Of a stretch of DNA of 64,000 nucleotides, positions 2,437 through 51,019 are shown one piece after another (positions within the stretch are counted from its first letter, which is position 1; the number at the start of each line of letters is the position of its first letter). The translations under genes and the position numbers were made by a program. The stretch comes from Firmicutes bacterium UBA4845. GTDB lineage: Bacteria > Bacillota > Clostridia > Tissierellales > Sedimentibacteraceae. The stretch lies in contig DHER01000114.1 in the NCBI GenBank assembly GCA_002399975.1, forward strand, positions 999 to 64,998, given 5' to 3'. Below the pieces are notes generated by a model that was not told the DNA's origin, did no database searches, and worked only from the letters and a program-made list of their open reading frames with translations.

Positions 2437-2961
2437 GTGAGTACAGTTTATGTTAGAAAAGCTACAGGAAAAGATTTAAGCGCCATTATGCCTATTATTG
2501 ACTACGCAAAACAATTACTGAAATCAGACGGCAGTCAACAATGGCAAAATGGTAATCCTAATGAGAAAATAATCCTTGATGATATCAGAAAAGGCTATTG
2601 TTATCTTTTAATAGTTGACGGGCAAATTGCTGGGACTTCCACATTATTGACCGAACCCGATCCAAATTATGAAGTAATTATTGACGGCTCATGGGAAAAT
2701 AACGAAAGTATTTATGCAACTTTTCATCGCATTGCTATTTCCGATAAATTTAGGGGAATGCATCTTTCTTCTTATTTATTTTCAAATCTGCTCAGTTTGG
2801 CATACAATCAAGGATTAAGAGATTTTAGAATAGATACTCATGAAATGAATTTACGTATGCAAGGATTGATTGAAAAAATTGGATTCAAATATAGAGGCAG
2901 AATTTTTGTTGATTCTACCCCTCATGGTGAGCGTAAAGCTTATGAACTTCACTTGGATTAA
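2437..2961 (+). CDS. GNAT family N-acetyltransferase
   Basis: QWQNGNP, HRIAISDKFRGMHLS acetyl-CoA motif, RIDTHEMNLRMQ; GGAGG SD before GTG. Confidence 0.85.
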   Translation: MSTVYVRKATGKDLSAIMPIIDYAKQLLKSDGSQQWQNGNPNEKIILDDIRKGYCYLLIVDGQIAGTSTLLTEPDPNYEVIIDGSWENNESIYATFHRIAISDKFRGMHLSSYLFSNLLSLAYNQGLRDFRIDTHEMNLRMQGLIEKIGFKYRGRIFVDSTPHGERKAYELHLD

Positions 2962-3070
2962 GTATATGGAATAGGCAATTAGTGAAAAGTAAAGATTTAA
3001 AATCTTATGTTTCAAACACACTAGAGATGGTATAATATAATTATAACATTTATACTGGAGGAGATTTGAA

Positions 3071-3668: not shown

Positions 3669-5384
3669 TTATTCAATCCAACTTGCAACTTTTTCCGGAT
3701 TTTTATCAATCCAATTTTGAGCAGCAACGGTTGGACCAACGTCTTGAAGTTCTAACATGACACTTTGCATATCTTCAACAGTCCAGTTAAAGTTATCTAT
3801 TACACGATAAACTTCAGGCATATCTTCTTCAAGGCCTTCTCTGGCAAATGAGACGACAAACTCACCTTCACCCATAGTCAGCTTGGGATCTTCTAAGATC
3901 TTCAAATCATATTTTTCATACATCCAATGAGGTTTCCAGCCGGTTGTAATAAAGTCTTCTTTACTGGCTATGGCTTTGTCCAGCTCTGCCAGCATGGCAC
4001 CCGTGGATGACGTGCTTAATGTCCAATCACTTAAATTTTCATAATCATTCATTAGTTTCTGGGCCAAAGCGGTGACACCTGCTCCTGGCTCAATTCCTGT
4101 AATAGTTTTATTCGCTTCATCCGTTAAATCGGCTATAGAATTGACATCCATGTAGGCAGGCACGGTTATCCCGTTAATAGCACCTTCCAAATTAGGCCCA
4201 AGGTTAATCATTTGATCACCATATTGTTCATATAAAAAACCGTGTGAATCAGGTAACCATGGAGCCACTGTGGCATCTGCTGTACCGCTGGCAATCGAGC
4301 TGAATACAATAGCTGGATCGAGCTCAGAGATTTTAACCGTATATCCCAAATCCTCTAAAACAATTTTTATCACATTGGCAGAAGCAATTTCACTATCCCA
4401 TTGAACACTAGCTAAGGTAACTGTTTTATCATTATCTTGATCAAGAGAATAATAAATTGTGCCACTTACCAAGAATAAAATGACTGCTAAAGATCCTGCC
4501 AATATGGCATGTTGCCTTTTTTTAGCCTGTTTAGGACTTGTTGCCCTGTCAGTTTTGTTGACATTTTGAGTAAAGCGGTCAATGATGATTGCTAAGATAA
4601 CTAAAGCTGAACCATTAACAAATCCATTTCCTACTTCTGCTCTTTGTAGTGCCTGTAACACTCCTTCTCCTAGCCCTGGAGCACCAATCATTGAAGCTGT
4701 AACGACCATCGACAAAGCCAACATTGTGGTCTGGTTGATTCCTGCAAAAATCGTATTTTTAGCCAGTGGCAATTCAAGTTTAATCATTTTTTGCCAACCG
4801 GTACTGCCAAATGAGTCAGAAGCTTCGGTTAATTCCTCAGGTATTTGGCGTATACCTAAATTTGTGAACCGTACGGTCGGCGGCAAAGCAAAGATAACGG
4901 ATGCGAAAACACCCGGTACCATGCCAATACCAAAGAAGGCAACGGCTGGAATTAAGTAAACAAAGGAGGGCATAGTTTGCATAAAATCAAGAATTGGTGT
5001 AATGACCCCTTTGGCACGTTCACTTTTTGACATCCAAATACCTAATGGTATACCCAATATAACTGAAATTATTGTAGCAATAATAACCAGCGTGAGAGTA
5101 TTAATTAAATTAATCCATAGGTTCTGGTTTAGTACAAAAAGAAGACCAATAAATGTAAAAACCGTTAAACTAATTTTTTTGTTTGATATAAAATATATAA
5201 TTATAGACAATACAATTATAAAAATAAGTGGTGGAATTATAAGTAAAGTTTCAACCATCCCGTTCATCACAGTGCTTCCAACTGTTTGAATGGAAGCAAA
5301 GAAACCGGCAAGTGTAGTCGTTAACCAATTGGTAAACATTTCAATCCATTCAGCCAATGGAAGTGGCGTTTGTAAAAATGTCAT
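3669..5384 (-). CDS. opuAB: glycine betaine ABC transporter, fused permease and substrate-binding protein (OpuAB/BusAB type)
   Basis: LDFMQTMPSFVYLIP, EAA-like loop, C-terminal binding domain with WLPDSH and TGWKPHWM. Confidence 0.9.
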   Translation of the reverse strand: MTFLQTPLPLAEWIEMFTNWLTTTLAGFFASIQTVGSTVMNGMVETLLIIPPLIFIIVLSIIIYFISNKKISLTVFTFIGLLFVLNQNLWINLINTLTLVIIATIISVILGIPLGIWMSKSERAKGVITPILDFMQTMPSFVYLIPAVAFFGIGMVPGVFASVIFALPPTVRFTNLGIRQIPEELTEASDSFGSTGWQKMIKLELPLAKNTIFAGINQTTMLALSMVVTASMIGAPGLGEGVLQALQRAEVGNGFVNGSALVILAIIIDRFTQNVNKTDRATSPKQAKKRQHAILAGSLAVILFLVSGTIYYSLDQDNDKTVTLASVQWDSEIASANVIKIVLEDLGYTVKISELDPAIVFSSIASGTADATVAPWLPDSHGFLYEQYGDQMINLGPNLEGAINGITVPAYMDVNSIADLTDEANKTITGIEPGAGVTALAQKLMNDYENLSDWTLSTSSTGAMLAELDKAIASKEDFITTGWKPHWMYEKYDLKILEDPKLTMGEGEFVVSFAREGLEEDMPEVYRVIDNFNWTVEDMQSVMLELQDVGPTVAAQNWIDKNPEKVASWIE

Positions 5385-45811: not shown

Positions 45812-47194
45812 ATGAAAATAGCAATAGTTGGAGGTGGTCCCGGAGGATATGTTGCGGCTATAAGAGCAGCACAATTAGGCGCGGAGGTTACCTTGATTGA
45901 AAAAGAAAACTTAGGAGGCACATGTTTAAATAAAGGATGTATTCCGACAAAGGTTCTGTTGCACACATCGGAGCGTATTGAAGAAATAAAAAATGATTAT
46001 GATAAAATTGGAATTGAAGTCTGCGAAGCTAAATTGGATTGGGCTAAGCTTCAAGAAAGAAAGGAAAAGATAGTCAAAAATCTTACAGGAGGAGTAGGTT
46101 CTTTATTAAGGAAAAACAAAGTAACAAGAATAACAGGGGAAGGAGAATTTAAAAATAAAAATCAACTGCGAGTAAAAACGGAACACGGTACGTCAGTCAC
46201 CGTTGATTTTGACTATGCCGTAATTGCATCAGGGTCAAGGCCCGTAGTTCCTCCACTGCCTGGGACAGACCTTCCGGGGGTGATAACAAGCGATGAGGCT
46301 CTTTGTCTGGGTGAAGTCCCCAGGAGCATGGTTATCATAGGAGGCGGCGTTATAGGAGCTGAGTTTGCGGCTGCCTACAGCGCTTTAGGATGCAGGATAA
46401 CGATTGTGGAAATGCTTCCCAAAATAGTTGCTAATATGGACCAGGATATTGTAAAATCTCTTAAGGAAAAATTTATTAAAAAAGGCATTGAAATACACAC
46501 TAGTACCAAGGTTGAGTCAATTTCCCGAACATCGGCAGGGCTTCTGATTAATACTTCTTCCGTGGAAGGTAAAAGATTCTTTGAAGCTGAAAAGGTATTA
46601 CTGTCAATAGGCAGACGGCCTGCCACAGACGGCTTGGGCCTGGAAAATACAGGCGTGAAAACAGAAAGAGGATCAATCGCAGTGGAAAGGAATATGCGGA
46701 CAAACGTAAGCAATATATATGCAATCGGCGACTGTATCGGCGGCATAATGCTTGCCCACGTGGCATCAGCGGAAGGAATTGCAGCTGTTGAATCAATTAT
46801 GGGTAAAAAAACGGCAATTGATTTTAAGACAGTTCCATATTGCGTATATACAAAACCGGAACTGGCAGGTGTAGGATTAACGGAAGAACAGGCAAAATCC
46901 GAGGGATATGACGTAAAAATTGGTGTGTTCCCTATGTATGGCAACGGTAAAGCAGTGATAGAGTGTGAGACGGAAGGACTGGTGAAATATATTGCCGATA
47001 ATGATACCGGAGAAATATTGGGGATGCATATGGCAGGTCCAAGAGCTACAGATCTAATTGTGGAGGGCGCACTTGCCATAAGGCTTGAAGCAACCATAGA
47101 TGAAATTATCTCAACTATACACGCTCACCCAACAATAAGTGAAGCGCTGCAGGAAGCTGCCCGTGCAGTACATGATAATCCAATCCACATATAA
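45812..47194 (+). CDS. acoL: dihydrolipoamide dehydrogenase E3
   Basis: GGGPGGY, GGTCLNKGCIP, HAHPT..E. Confidence 0.92.
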   Translation: MKIAIVGGGPGGYVAAIRAAQLGAEVTLIEKENLGGTCLNKGCIPTKVLLHTSERIEEIKNDYDKIGIEVCEAKLDWAKLQERKEKIVKNLTGGVGSLLRKNKVTRITGEGEFKNKNQLRVKTEHGTSVTVDFDYAVIASGSRPVVPPLPGTDLPGVITSDEALCLGEVPRSMVIIGGGVIGAEFAAAYSALGCRITIVEMLPKIVANMDQDIVKSLKEKFIKKGIEIHTSTKVESISRTSAGLLINTSSVEGKRFFEAEKVLLSIGRRPATDGLGLENTGVKTERGSIAVERNMRTNVSNIYAIGDCIGGIMLAHVASAEGIAAVESIMGKKTAIDFKTVPYCVYTKPELAGVGLTEEQAKSEGYDVKIGVFPMYGNGKAVIECETEGLVKYIADNDTGEILGMHMAGPRATDLIVEGALAIRLEATIDEIISTIHAHPTISEALQEAARAVHDNPIHI

Positions 47195-47272: not shown

Positions 47273-47317
47273 AAAAAAGGACTGCTAAGAGATGAAGCCA
47301 TGACATTTCAGCAGTCC
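47273..47317 (-). terminator. intrinsic terminator of the XRE gene
   Basis: Minus strand GGACTGCT...AGCAGTCC followed by TTTTTT. Confidence 0.6.
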
Positions 47318-47357
47318 ATTCTATTCGCTAAATCATGTTTAGACGAATGGTTAAAAT

Positions 47358-47732
47358 TTAATCTTTTTGATTAAAAGAGTTTAATCCTGTAACAACATGT
47401 ATGAAACCTTGTATATCTCTCTTTTTTTCTTTGCCTAATTTTCTGTATGCTTCAATAAGTTCTTTTTCTTCTTCGGACAAATATAACTCGTGAGATTCAT
47501 TAGAATTTTCTTTTTTAGCAAGTGCCATAGGCGGTTCTCCTGTAAGAATCCAGTCTATGGAAACACCGAATAATTGTCTTAAGGCTATCAGAGCATTGCT
47601 TGACGGAGCAAATTTATCATTTTCAAGCTCGCTTAAATTTCCCGTAGACAGACCGGTCATATTTCTTACTTCAGTTAAAGATAATTTGTTAATTTTACGT
47701 GCATATCGTATTCTTTTTCCGATTGTATCCAA
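47358..47732 (-). CDS. XRE-family HTH repressor (CI/ImmR-like, no S24 peptidase domain)
   Basis: IGKRIRYARK, LSELEND, FGVSIDWILTG; GGAGGT SD before TTG. Confidence 0.9.
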   Translation of the reverse strand: MDTIGKRIRYARKINKLSLTEVRNMTGLSTGNLSELENDKFAPSSNALIALRQLFGVSIDWILTGEPPMALAKKENSNESHELYLSEEEKELIEAYRKLGKEKKRDIQGFIHVVTGLNSFNQKD

Positions 47733-47748
47733 AAGATCACCTCCGTTA

Positions 47749-47860
47749 TATCTATTAAAAGATAATATGTATTGACTTTATCGGATATCTGATATAATAT
47801 AAATATGACTAAATATTAATCATCTATTATACATTTTAGCACAATATCTTATAAACGAGA
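47749..47860. promoter_or_regulatory. three TATC-N8-GA(T/G)A operator-like sites and divergent promoter region
   Basis: 47749-47764 TATCTATTAAAAGATA; 47779-47794 TATCGGATATCTGATA, between TTGACT and TGnTATAAT; 47845-47860 TATCTTATAAACGAGA. Confidence 0.55.
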
Positions 47861-47884
47861 ATATATTTTTGAGGAGGACCATAT

Positions 47885-48076
47885 ATGAAAAAAAGGAAGC
47901 TTACTCCTTTCGGCCTGAGAGTAAAAAACAGACTAGCTGATTTAAATATGTCCCAAAAGGATTTGGCAGAAAAATTAGGTACATCCGGTGCTTATCTAAG
48001 TATGATTTTATATGGGGTTCGTTCCGGGAATATGTATATAGAAGATATTAAACAAATTTTAGATATTGATTATTAA
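47885..48076 (+). CDS. Cro-like small HTH protein
   Basis: MSQKDLAEKLGTSGAYLSMILYG; GAGGAGG SD; divergent from the XRE gene. Confidence 0.85.
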   Translation: MKKRKLTPFGLRVKNRLADLNMSQKDLAEKLGTSGAYLSMILYGVRSGNMYIEDIKQILDIDY

Positions 48077-48186
48077 ACATATCAGGTTTAGCTAAACAGT
48101 TTACAAAACATTCCAAAATAGTTACTAATATGATGAGGTAAAACAGGGTAATATATGTTGTAATATAATTTGTTAGGAGTTGGCAT

Positions 48187-48883
48187 ATGAATAAAACGGA
48201 TTCTTTTACGACAATCTTCATATTGGTAGATGAGGATGGAAAAATTTATTACAGTAACATAAATAACGTAGATATGATAAAAGGTTTAATTAAGACAGCA
48301 AAATCAAACAAGTTGTTTGATGATGGCAAAAAAAAAAATCGACGGCTATATTTTTACTGCAGATAAAATAAACATTGATGAAAAAGCACTTTGGGTATTG
48401 ATTACAGAAATGGAATATTATAGGACCTACGATGATCTATCCACAGGGCTTTATAACAGAAATTACTGGGAGCATTTGAAAGACGGTGTTGTTAAATTTT
48501 TGTATGGTTCATCCTATTCTCTCATTGTAATTGATATTGACAATTTAAAGGAATGTAATGATTTATATGGACATGTAATAGGGGATGAAGTGATTGCGTC
48601 GGTTGGAGAATCAATACTGAACTCAGTAAGAGAAAACGATGTTGCTATCCATTATGGAGGAGACGAATTCATAGTAATTCTTCCCAACGCTAATATTGCA
48701 GTGGCAAACAAGGTTATTACCAGAATAAAAAAAGATATAAAGAAAAAATACATAAATAAAAAATTAAAAATTGAAGTTAGCGCGGGGGCATCATATTCTA
48801 ATGATATAAGCAAATTAGAACAGGCACTGCAGTCTGCGGACATGAAAATGTATAGTGAAAAAAATAGAAAGAAAAAATTGTAG
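48187..48883 (+). pseudogene. diguanylate cyclase split by a frameshift in an A11 tract (48328-48338)
   Basis: 59-aa ORF 48187-48366 with AGGAG SD joins the GGDEF ORF if the run is A10 (231 aa); DDLSTGLYNR, DIDNLKECND, RxxD I-site and GGDEF intact; no SD before the internal starts. Confidence 0.75.
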
Positions 48884-49015
48884 AATAAATATGGTGTGTG
48901 AATAAAAAATTTTATTATAATATAAATACTTTGAATTATACGACATGACATTAATAATATTTATGGTATAATATATAAAGAATAATCCGTTAAAGGGAAA
49001 TATCTTGTTGAGGGG

Positions 49016-51019
49016 ATGTTTATGCAGTATTCAAGTGAAGGAGCAATTCGTGATTTAAACGAGAAAACGCGGTATTTGAAACTTTTGTCCAAACAATTTC
49101 CGACTATTGCATCCTGCTGCACGGAAATTATCAATTTGCAGGCTATTTTGAATCTTCCTAAAGGAACGGAGCATTTTTTATCTGATATTCATGGTGAATA
49201 TGAGGCTTTTAATCATGTGCTTAAGAATGGCTCAGGGAACATTAAACGCAAGATAACTGAAGTTTTTGGAGATATAATGAGCGAAAATGATATCAAAAGC
49301 CTTGCGACGCTGATTTATTATCCTGAGCAAAAGTTGGAAATTATTCATAAGCAGGAAAAGAATATTGAAGAATGGTACAAAATAACTATTTACAGGCTTA
49401 TAGTTGTAAGCAGAAAGGCTGCATTTAAATATACGCGTATGAAGGTAAGAAAAGCGCTGCCTAAGGAATTTGCATATATAATTGAAGAACTTATGCAAAG
49501 GGGGCCTGAGGAATATGATAAGGAAGAATATTACAACGAAATTATTAACTCGATCATCAAAGTTGGAAGTGCAGATGAATTTATAATAGCCATGTCCAAG
49601 CTGATTCAAAGGCTGGTTATAGACAGACTTCACATAGTTGGTGATATATTTGACAGAGGTCCGGGTGCGGATAAGGTTATGGATACACTGATTAACTATC
49701 ATTCCCTGGACATTCAGTGGGGGAATCATGATGTGCTTTGGATGGGTGCCGCTGCCGGAAGCGAAGCGTGTATAGCTACAGTAATTAGAATATGTACCAG
49801 ATATGCAAATTTGGATACAATTGAAAATGGTTATGGAATCAACCTGCTTCCGCTGGCTACATTTGCATTGGAATATTATGGAGATGACAATTGTGCGCAG
49901 TTTATGCCAAAAATAGAAAGTGACATTACTTACAGTGAAAATGACTTAAGGCTTATTGCAAAAATGCACAAGGCTATTTCCATAATACAATTTAAGCTGG
50001 AAGGAGAAATAATTAAAAGGCGTCCGTATTTTCACATGGAAGACAGACTTTTACTAAATAAAATTAATTATGAAGAAGGAACCATTGACTGTTATGGTGA
50101 GGTTTACAAACTGAACGATACAAATTTTCCAACCATAGATCCTAAAGAACCTTATAAATTAACGAAAGAAGAAAAAGAACTTATTGAAAAATTAAAATCT
50201 TCTTTTTTAAACAGTGAAAGACTGCAAAAACATGTAAGGTTTCTTTTTTCAAAGGGAAGCATGTGCTTGAAGTTTAATTCCAATCTTCTTTATCACGGAT
50301 GCATTCCTGTCAATGAGGACGGAACGTTTAAAAAAGTTAAAATAGGTTCGTCAGGTAAGGAATACAGCGGAAAAGAATATTTTGACAGACTTGAAATTTT
50401 AATAAGGGAAGGGTACTTTCATAAAAACGATCCTGAAGGCAAGCTATATGGTATGGATATGACATGGTATTTGTGGACCGGACCTGACTCTCCTCTTTTT
50501 GGCAAGGATAAGATGACTACATTTGAAAGATATTTCATTGATGATAAACAAACCCATGAAGAGAAAAAAAATCCATACTTTAAACTGGAAAACAGCGAAA
50601 AGATGTGCAGGTTAATTTTTAAAGAATTTGGTTTAAATCCAAATACGTCTCATATAATTAACGGGCATGTACCGGTTAAAAGCAAAAATGGCGAAAGCCC
50701 TATTAAAGCTAATGGTAAAATTATAGTTATTGACGGAGGGTTTTCGAGAGCTTATCAGAGTACTACGGGTATTGCCGGATATACGTTGATTTACAATTCT
50801 TACGGTCTCATACTTGTATCCCATGATCCATTTGAATCAACTCAAAAAGCAGTTGAAGAAGAAAAAGACATTCATTCTACAAGAAGGGTTATAGAAAAAG
50901 AATTGGAAAGGAAAAGGGTAGGAGATACCGATAACGGAGCGGAGCTTAAGGAAAATATTAAGGATTTGCAAATGCTCTTGAATGCCTATAGAACTGGATT
51001 AATTAAGGAACAGGAATAA
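49016..51019 (+). CDS. fbp: fructose-1,6-bisphosphatase class III
   Basis: [34 protein letters not shown]. Confidence 0.93.

Follow-up and report, generated by a model that had tools for sequence, protein, structure and literature searches.

The cassette and the question it raises

Between acoL (ending at position 47194) and fbp (starting at 49016), the stretch of Firmicutes bacterium UBA4845 DNA analysed here (64,000 nucleotides, 35.7% G+C; hereafter the window) carries four elements: xre, encoding a repressor-like protein; an intergenic region of 152 bp; a gene for a 63-aa helix-turn-helix (HTH) protein resembling phage Cro and Ner proteins; and a GGDEF gene for a diguanylate cyclase (Table 1). 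The question raised by this cassette of about 1.5 kb is whether a phage-type switch has been taken over by the chromosome and put in charge of the synthesis of cyclic di-GMP (c-di-GMP). The answer that we favour, on balance and with modest confidence, is that the locus represents a domesticated phage-type switch, Mu c/Ner-like and SinR-like in character, which forms a chromosomal cassette driving cyclase and anti-sporulation outputs. The cassette is real and conserved and has apparently not been described before; literature searches found no paper on an xre-cro-GGDEF or GGDEF-Spo0E cassette.

The three-gene order is conserved and the cargo varies

A first-pass annotation of the window had reported a CI/ImmR-like xre gene and a divergent cro-like gene 152 bp apart, and had suggested looking for the xre-cro-GGDEF order in relatives. 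Both regulatory open reading frames (ORFs) are present and match HTH families, and the order xre (−), cro (+), GGDEF (+) was found in 11 lineages with cyclase identity down to 36–46%. The genes flanking the cassette differ among lineages and include mntP and genes for an SLH protein, a nitroreductase and a major facilitator superfamily transporter, among others. The regulators are better conserved (76–77% identity for the XRE protein and 82–84% for the Cro-like protein) than the enzyme (~55%). A scan of metagenomes with the XRE alignment gave 23 loci bearing the xre-cro pair, and a scan of genome contigs with the cyclase alignment picked up generic GGDEF motifs, the useful ones among the matches listed being L023 and L024. 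With 141 clusters among 5.8 billion proteins, the XRE family is a small one; its named sources are Clostridia, Tissierellia or Peptococcaceae, and its annotation is generic throughout. Homologues of XRE are encoded in named genomes of Sedimentibacter, Alkaliphilus sp. MSJ-5 and Garciella nitratireducens. No paralogues of xre, cro or the cyclase gene were found in the 64-kb window.

The cargo after cro varies in the wider family, and the switch can thus be regarded as a portable unit. Near the lineage of the window, the most frequent cargo is the cyclase, a Spo0E-like protein (PF09388) or both. A distant clade of 241- and 294-aa cyclases, the 294-aa form being fused to Spo0E, is accompanied by a divergent 81-aa XRE protein only, with no cro. 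The first-pass annotation had envisaged an output that sets motile against sessile cells; because the cargo of relatives often includes a Spo0E-like regulator, the theme appears to be sporulation and lifestyle, not motility alone. Spo0E-family proteins oppose Spo0A activation. The recurrence of GGDEF and Spo0E cargo points to a sporulation-avoiding, high-c-di-GMP state rather than to a simple choice between motile and sessile. In C. difficile, c-di-GMP inhibits early sporulation (PMC8653836).

The intergenic region holds two kinds of conserved palindrome

We compared 23 intergenic regions and scored the positions of the O sites in 19 orthologous loci. The three TATC-N8-GA(T/G)A sites noted at first pass in the 152 bp were located at 47749, 47779 and 47845; they are real, but the true operator is longer, with the consensus TMTCKGA-NN-TCMGAKA across relatives. 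The short motif gives 13 strand-hits in the 64-kb window versus 4.7 expected, five of the 13 falling inside the 152 bp, and the three sites exceed chance because their position is conserved in the 19 orthologous regions. As had been proposed, one of them (O2, at 47779) lies within a promoter spacer, between TTGACT (47772) and the −10. It starts 7 nt after the start of the −35 hexamer (TTGAC[AT]) in 19 of 19 loci, and relatives keep both TTGAC[AT] and a TAnnAT hexamer 17 nt further on. O1 and O2 are 30 bp apart in two loci, 39–41 bp in 14, 51 bp in one and 60 bp in two; since these spacings step by about one helical turn, cooperative binding on one face of the DNA is suggested. O3, about 25 bp before the cro ribosome-binding site, is well conserved though weak. 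Together the three sites are spread over 112 bp and are not in tandem.

The predicted promoters P_cro and P_xre are placed face-to-face, with predicted start sites approximately 12–15 bp apart. In relatives, P_xre shows an extended −10 (TGnTACAAT) in the same place, and its reverse complement, ATTGTACCA, is conserved in the intergenic regions. A second palindrome, with the consensus TGAYTAA-N3-TTAATCA, is present in two copies. Of 25 related loci, 24 have the distal copy, B2, 10–50 bp past the stop codon of xre, in most cases as a perfect palindrome, and the distance at which B1 and B2 enclose xre is 458–520 bp in most loci and reaches 605 bp. By analogy, this bracketing recalls the flanking operators of true phage switches. 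The stems of the palindrome are invariant while its loop varies, which argues for a DNA site and not an RNA hairpin. Reading B as a Fur or Rex box was rejected: the motif is found only with this cassette and its half-sites differ from theirs. No other good O or B sites were found in the 64-kb window. Operators, promoters and both palindromes are positionally conserved in 19–24 loci whose XRE proteins are only 47–77% identical. The lambda OR-like layout suggested at first pass did not hold up; with promoters predicted face-to-face and a second palindrome type in two copies, the arrangement is closer to Mu c/Ner or phage 186.

Phased O spacing needs an oligomerising protein, and on this ground we infer that the O sites are bound by XRE and the B sites by the Cro-like protein; the reverse assignment is also possible. 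Comparison with phages failed to assign the sites because both the O and the B motif are missing from the Mu-like phage regions bearing the closest Cro-like homologues, and covariation could not assign them because both recognition helices are almost invariant across the family.

Two departures from this layout were seen among relatives. The metagenome contig L107 (reverse complement 2410–2509; low coverage) has an intergenic region of only 98 nt in which O1, the −35 and −10 of P_cro and O2 are deleted; B1, P_xre and O3 are still there, as are cro and an intact GGDEF gene of 239 aa. In L121, L122 and L126, which carry lipoprotein and ApbE cargo, the intergenic regions lack the O sites, B1 and the TTGACA promoter, so that the regulatory layout in this clade must differ; B2, the extended −10 of P_xre and the recognition helices of both proteins are retained.

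Both regulators have phage relatives

The XRE protein matches Pfam HTH_19 (E 4.9e-14). Its best NCBIfam match is DicA (NF007257, E 3.7e-13), at 49.4 bits versus a curated cutoff of 101, and for this reason it is not considered a DicA member. An AlphaFold2 model (predicted local distance difference test score, pLDDT, of 85) gives an N-terminal HTH of the 434/P22 C2/ImmR type, a linker and two C-terminal helices. The solved structures nearest to the HTH are ImmR (7t8i, E 1.7e-5, the best PDB profile match) and P22 C2. Searched with Foldseek, the model retrieved full-length SinR in the SinR-SinI complex (1b0n, 117 columns), arbitrium phage repressors and P22 C2; arbitrium phage repressors bind small anti-repressors. 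XRE is 33–39% identical to phage C2-type and BalMu-1 repressors.

The Cro-like protein matches HTH_3 (E 2.6e-6) and, end to end, PHROG 1468 (E 1.4e-20). It is 45–48% identical, over 95% of its length, to the product of the gene directly before the Mu-type transposase in two phages, FP_Mushu of Faecalibacterium and Villandry of Clostridium. This gene has been termed ner-like (PMC11318856). Phage and plasmid collections contained no close relatives, and the plasmid matches were only to distant DicA-like proteins (34% identity).

We consider three other identities of the locus very improbable, namely a prophage remnant in decay, a toxin-antitoxin pair and a module for defence against phages. Such an origin would account for the phage relatives of the HTH proteins and for weak PADLOC HTH matches, including capH, but these matches are to generic HTH only. 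Within 6 kb there are no genes for phage proteins, integrases, transposases, toxins or effectors, in agreement with the first-pass observation that the module has no phage genes around it (none within ~6 kb on each side). The cassette is conserved across Clostridia families and, as stated above, has no close relatives in the phage or plasmid collections. In addition, the ratio of non-synonymous to synonymous substitution rates (dN/dS; Nei-Gojobori estimates, window versus the sister lineage L181) is 0.11 for xre and 0.04 for cro. Strong purifying selection on both genes is not what the first-pass alternative of a decaying prophage would leave behind.

The cyclase gene follows cro without a terminator

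In nine of the 10 lineages compared, cro and the cyclase gene are separated by 50–157 nt, the exception being L024 with 280 nt, and the spacers contain no terminator and no well-conserved full promoter. Contigs identical to the window from two metatranscriptomes cover 47952–48386 (X1) and 48014–48219 (X2) at low depth; the X1 contig spans cro through the A tract inside the cyclase gene.

Short spacers without terminators and RNA contigs that join cro to the cyclase gene argue against a self-contained xre-cro pair, acting elsewhere or on itself, next to which the cyclase would lie by lineage-specific accident and under its own promoter. That the three-gene order persists in 11 lineages with different flanks, that GGDEF or Spo0E-like cargo recurs in distinct arrangements, and that the 64-kb window has no further good O or B sites point the same way. 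We regard a self-contained pair as quite unlikely, even though the cargo varies (in L117 nothing co-directional follows cro), hexamers of the −10 type are found between cro and the cyclase gene, and the 294-aa GGDEF-Spo0E clade has a single divergent 81-aa XRE protein and no cro.

The long spacer of L024 (1016–1295, from an Alkaliphilus metagenome-assembled genome, MAG) folds at −75 kcal/mol with a perfect 14-bp stem and matches no family in Rfam; an attenuator or a so far unclassified leader RNA may be encoded there.

The cyclase gene is frameshifted yet constrained

At first pass, the gene after cro had been read as a GGDEF enzyme. Its GGDEF domain is complete, but the ORF is split into parts of 59 and 188 aa (orfA and orfB) that are out of frame at a tract of 11 A residues (A11); A10 or A13 at this position would restore a 231-aa protein. 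orfB matches Pfam GGDEF (PF00990, E 1.8e-32) and TIGR00254 (E 7e-38), and alignment with homologues shows that the GGDEF motif, the RxxD I-site (REND-x5) and the guanine-contacting N and D are present. The homologues (70% identity for P0002 and ~55% for a dozen others) are single ORFs of 236–239 aa with a mini-PAS-GGDEF architecture; because they align over both orfA and orfB, the ancestral gene must have been a single ORF. In a model of P0002 (pLDDT 84), a 70-residue mini-PAS domain with the order beta-beta-alpha-alpha-beta-beta-beta is followed by GGDEF, the best PDB fold match being the PAS-GGDEF-EAL protein PA0861. The frameshift position corresponds to a low-confidence loop within the mini-PAS domain of this model.

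The frameshift is not a sequencing error, since all 16 loci, from at least 11 assemblies, read A11. These assemblies are 100% identical over 1.8 kb and therefore represent one clone, not independent samples. Internal initiation of orfB at the ATG ATG before the tract was rejected as a conserved mechanism because no ribosome-binding site stands in front of this pair of codons and because, in the sister lineage, they are not in the frame of orfB.

The sister lineage L181 has the same acoL-module-fbp context and a cyclase gene ~92% identical to that of the window. In this gene, the same A11 tract is directly preceded by 10 additional bases (a 9-base in-frame indel and one T), and the gene is likewise out of frame with a different offset; repair would take A12 or A9 in L181 versus A10 or A13 in the window. 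L182, whose gene is intact, has AAAAAAAGAAA in frame at the tract, from which we conclude that A11 arose by a G-to-A change and that the frame-breaking indels lie beside the tract. The L181 cyclase allele is also carried by a sludge metagenome. The X1 and X2 contigs include a variant 5–7% divergent from the window and matching L181 (window 47749–47959 and 48688–48941), so the two lineages are found together, and both are represented in RNA libraries made from food fermentations and mud.

Between window and L181, dN/dS is 0.13 for orfA (six non-synonymous and eight synonymous differences) and 0.21 for orfB (20 and 21), comparable figures being 0.15 for acoL, 0.21 for the E2 gene and 0.10 for fbp; a binomial test of the cyclase gene against neutrality gives P = 5e-8. 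With dN/dS well below 1, both halves were subject to purifying selection through most of the divergence, if not all of it. As judged from sequence, either the frame was lost very recently in both lineages or the gene may still be used through slippage on the A run.

The first of these options corresponds to a switch that is real and an output that is dead here: the cyclase would be a recent pseudogene, lost independently or successively in both lineages, and only cro and xre would be regulated. We take this to be a serious possibility that falls short of probable. The frameshift stands in all assemblies, the sister lineage is out of frame too, no in-frame allele is found among ~30 contigs in the protein collection, and GGDEF has repeatedly been lost or has decayed elsewhere (L106, L109 and L110). 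Against a pseudogene, the low ratios hold over a dS of ~0.2–0.4, with no further stops in the 231 codons of either lineage, and parsimony places a frameshift in the common ancestor, in which case neutral decay would be expected and is not seen. Moreover, the lesion sits at an A11 run, and RNA polymerase and ribosomes slip on long A runs.

A second way of keeping the gene in use would be a phase-variable contingency locus at the DNA level, in which slipped-strand mispairing of the A tract gives in-frame subpopulations. Periodic use would fit the purifying selection, A11 is the longest homopolymer in the window, and a change of one A would bring either lineage back into frame. Such a locus is nonetheless unlikely: A11 came from a G-to-A change and not from a change of length, the indels lie beside the tract, and A11 is read in all of the assemblies and contigs compared, namely the 16 loci, the sister lineage and the metagenome and metatranscriptome contigs, these being clonal consensus sequences in which minor alleles would not show.

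Proposed mechanism

For the domesticated switch that we favour, the following sequence of events can be proposed. XRE, a SinR-like repressor transcribed leftward from P_xre, would bind the three O sites. At O2, in the P_cro spacer, it would shut off rightward transcription, assisted cooperatively by O1 on the same helix face, and at the weak O3 over P_xre it would regulate its own gene. Once XRE is inactivated, perhaps by a small anti-repressor, P_cro would fire and yield the Cro/Ner-like protein and the cargo. The Cro/Ner-like protein, encoded by the first gene of the rightward transcript, would bind B1 and B2 and turn xre down. Interference between the face-to-face promoters, together with repression of P_xre by the Cro-like protein, would create two self-sustaining states, xre-on or cro-on; we infer mutual repression and bistability only from the architecture. 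In the cro-on state, the cargo would be co-transcribed, namely the mini-PAS-GGDEF diguanylate cyclase here and a Spo0E-like protein in addition or instead in relatives, and this state would raise c-di-GMP and oppose entry into sporulation. In the window, full-length enzyme would require either slippage on A11, by a minority of transcripts or ribosomes, or a one-base change in the length of the tract. A bolder form of the proposal, a heritable two-state switch in Clostridia/Tissierellia that produces a c-di-GMP-high, Spo0E-on subpopulation, with A11 slippage as an additional layer kept by selection since before the lineages split, is possible but doubtful.

Several observations weigh against a domesticated switch with a working output. 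The promoters were called by consensus in AT-rich DNA, where the scan gave 12 matches versus 12.4 in shuffles. The first-pass description of the repressor as CI/ImmR-like stands insofar as both HTH proteins are akin to phage switch proteins; XRE has no CI-type peptidase domain (no match to a peptidase family in Pfam or NCBIfam, and only two helices at the C-terminus of the model), no ImmA-like or SinI-like gene was seen at the locus, and the fold is SinR-like. Several loci have TATAAT-like hexamers directly before the ribosome-binding site of the cyclase gene, and an extra promoter for the cyclase gene is possible on sequence grounds. The support from RNA consists of contigs assembled at low depth, and for one of the two libraries the RNA origin is a guess. 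The xre-cro pair can exist without this cargo, because relatives carry unrelated genes or none (L117). To these must be added the decay or loss of GGDEF in three loci, the lost frame in L181 and the missing in-frame allele described in the previous section.

Comparison with known systems

The Mu c/Ner region has convergent promoters with a site for the small protein (Ner) between them. Convergent transcription in Mu also appears in a title cited by PMC3820752. For the present locus, convergent promoters with a separate small-protein site between them are predicted from the conserved hexamers and the position of B1. Likenesses to Mu-type regions are the homology of the Cro-like protein to the ner-position gene of FP_Mushu and Villandry, the resemblance of XRE to the repressor of the Mu-like phage BalMu-1, and a set of several predicted operators for the repressor, of which one covers the early promoter and another the promoter of the repressor gene. 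The locus differs from Mu in that there is no transposase or other phage gene, the cargo consists of host-type signalling genes, the operators are not common to FP_Mushu/Villandry-type phages, the second palindrome occurs again on the far side of xre, and XRE is 124 aa long versus 197 aa for Mu c. With the CI-Cro switches of lambda, 434 and P22 it shares divergent repressor and cro genes, an HTH of the 434/P22 C2 type and three related operators whose spacing suggests cooperative binding; however, the operators are not tandem between back-to-back promoters, the palindromes are of two distinct types, XRE has no LexA/S24 autocleavage domain, and the locus is not in a prophage. The HTH of ICEBs1 ImmR is the best PDB sequence match, but the ImmA-like gene that belongs to the ImmR/ImmA system is absent from the locus.

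Among chromosomal systems, B. subtilis SinR-SinI/SlrR offers a phage-type HTH with a C-terminal two-helix multimerisation module, as in the XRE model, and a phage-derived regulator tied to lifestyle and sporulation decisions. Sequence similarity between SinR and XRE is limited to the HTH, the partner here is a Cro-like HTH protein in place of a SinI- or SlrR-like one, and the output is the cyclase and/or a Spo0E-like protein, not matrix operons. In dicA-dicC-dicB of E. coli Qin, too, a chromosomal phage-type repressor/cro pair has a cro-side promoter that drives a host-physiology gene, but Qin, unlike the present locus, can be recognised as a cryptic prophage. The phase-variable pdcB of C. difficile affects sporulation (bioRxiv 10.1101/2021.05.24.445537). 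It resembles the present cyclase gene as a c-di-GMP enzyme with possibly stochastic expression, and differs in having an invertible DNA element where a homopolymer is found here. In endosymbionts, polymerase slippage on poly(A) tracts can restore a broken frame, and here too the coding frame is broken at a long A run; in contrast to slippage-prone and phase-variable genes, neither length heterogeneity nor a slipped transcript was seen here among consensus contigs.

In Clostridia, individual cells differ in whether they sporulate and in whether they live sessile or planktonic, but apart from SinR/SlrR of Bacillus and the invertible switches of C. difficile little is known of the circuits that generate such heterogeneity. 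The cassette could be a circuit behind sporulation or sessile-versus-planktonic heterogeneity in this group, and it would link phage-type repressors directly to a c-di-GMP synthase and Spo0E-like regulators. The frameshifted yet constrained cyclase gene is a possible case of natural slippage-dependent expression outside endosymbionts. As a portable two-state part, the cassette may also serve anaerobe engineering.

Table 1. Features of the cassette in the window, loci with the xre-cro-GGDEF order, and genes carried after cro in relatives
Feature	Position or locus	Strand	Remarks
xre	47358–47732	−	124-aa repressor-like protein; conserved TTG start codon
Candidate intrinsic terminator of xre	47279–47317	−	hairpin GGACUGCUGA...UUAGCAGUCC then UUUUUUAUUU
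B2, distal palindrome copy	47348–47364	.	TGGTTAAAATTTAATCT; 2 mismatches; overlaps xre stop codon
O1 operator (predicted)	47749–47764	.	TATCTATTAAAAGATA; in predicted xre leader beside xre ribosome-binding site
P_cro (predicted)	47772–47800	+	TTGACT, 17 nt, TAATAT; promoter for cro and cyclase gene
O2 operator (predicted)	47779–47794	.	TATCGGATATCTGATA; fills P_cro spacer; 1 mismatch to family consensus
B1, proximal palindrome copy	47806–47822	.	TGACTAAATATTAATCA; covers both predicted start sites
P_xre (predicted)	47826–47855	−	−10 TATAAT at 47831–47826; 10/12 matches; faces P_cro
O3 operator (predicted)	47845–47860	.	TATCTTATAAACGAGA; weaker site over P_xre −35 region
cro/ner-like gene	47885–48076	+	63-aa single-domain HTH protein
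cro-to-cyclase spacer	48077–48186	+	110 bp; no terminator; ends in ribosome-binding site AGGAG
Cyclase orfA	48187–48366	+	59-aa ORF; first half of mini-PAS; ends out of frame 28 nt past A tract
Cyclase orfB	48317–48883	+	188-aa ORF; rest of mini-PAS and complete GGDEF domain
A11 tract at frameshift	48328–48338	+	longest homopolymer in window
xre-cro-GGDEF locus	window		this sequence
xre-cro-GGDEF locus	L181		sister lineage
xre-cro-GGDEF locus	L182/L183		P0002
xre-cro-GGDEF locus	L017-19		P0010
xre-cro-GGDEF locus	L020/21		P0012
xre-cro-GGDEF locus	L022		P0006
xre-cro-GGDEF locus	L107		metagenome contig
xre-cro-GGDEF locus	L114		metagenome contig
xre-cro-GGDEF locus	L024/L115		Alkaliphilus MAG
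xre-cro-GGDEF locus	L184		Peptococcaceae MAG
xre-cro-GGDEF locus	L185		Sedimentibacter
Cargo: GGDEF alone	window clade		
Cargo: GGDEF fused to Spo0E-like domain	L114 (1462–2337); L024 (1296–2192)/L115	− (L114)	
Cargo: GGDEF, then separate Spo0E-like gene	L184 (Spo0E-like gene 3776–3946)		
Cargo: 108-aa GGDEF remnant (GRDEY) and Spo0E-like gene	L110 (Spo0E-like gene 2793–3002)	−	remnant beside IS110-like ORF
Cargo: deletion joining cro codon 19 to GGDEF C-terminus	L106		
Cargo: GGDEF cleanly absent	L109		Mrp and DUF134 neighbours as in L017
Cargo: Spo0E-like alone, directly after cro	L187 (2844–3014)	−	cultured species Irregularibacter muris
Cargo: TctCBA	L125, L127		unrelated
Cargo: lipoprotein and ApbE	L121, L122, L126, L128		unrelated
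Cargo: small membrane proteins	L111		unrelated
Cargo: no co-directional gene	L117		

Further observations around the cassette

The candidate xre terminator folds at −21.4 kcal/mol (z −3.4 versus shuffles) and had been passed over by the terminator scan because its loop is long. This hairpin with its U run (47317–47279) probably ends xre, and the same hairpin may terminate acoL on the plus strand too. A fermentation-metagenome assembly, ERZ922853, shows an 81-nt deletion (window 47677–47770 versus L010 5865–5900) between imperfect repeats AAAGATAAT(T/A)TGT, which takes out the xre start codon, the xre ribosome-binding site and half of O1; judged from its sequence, this allele looks like a natural xre knock-out that would leave cro and the cyclase gene derepressed. 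An Rfam search found no riboswitch or other RNA family in the locus. Finally, a near-consensus promoter (ATGACA, 16 nt, TATAAT, with TG; 11/12 matches) lies at 48945–48972 just upstream of fbp, and fbp is therefore probably transcribed independently of the cassette.

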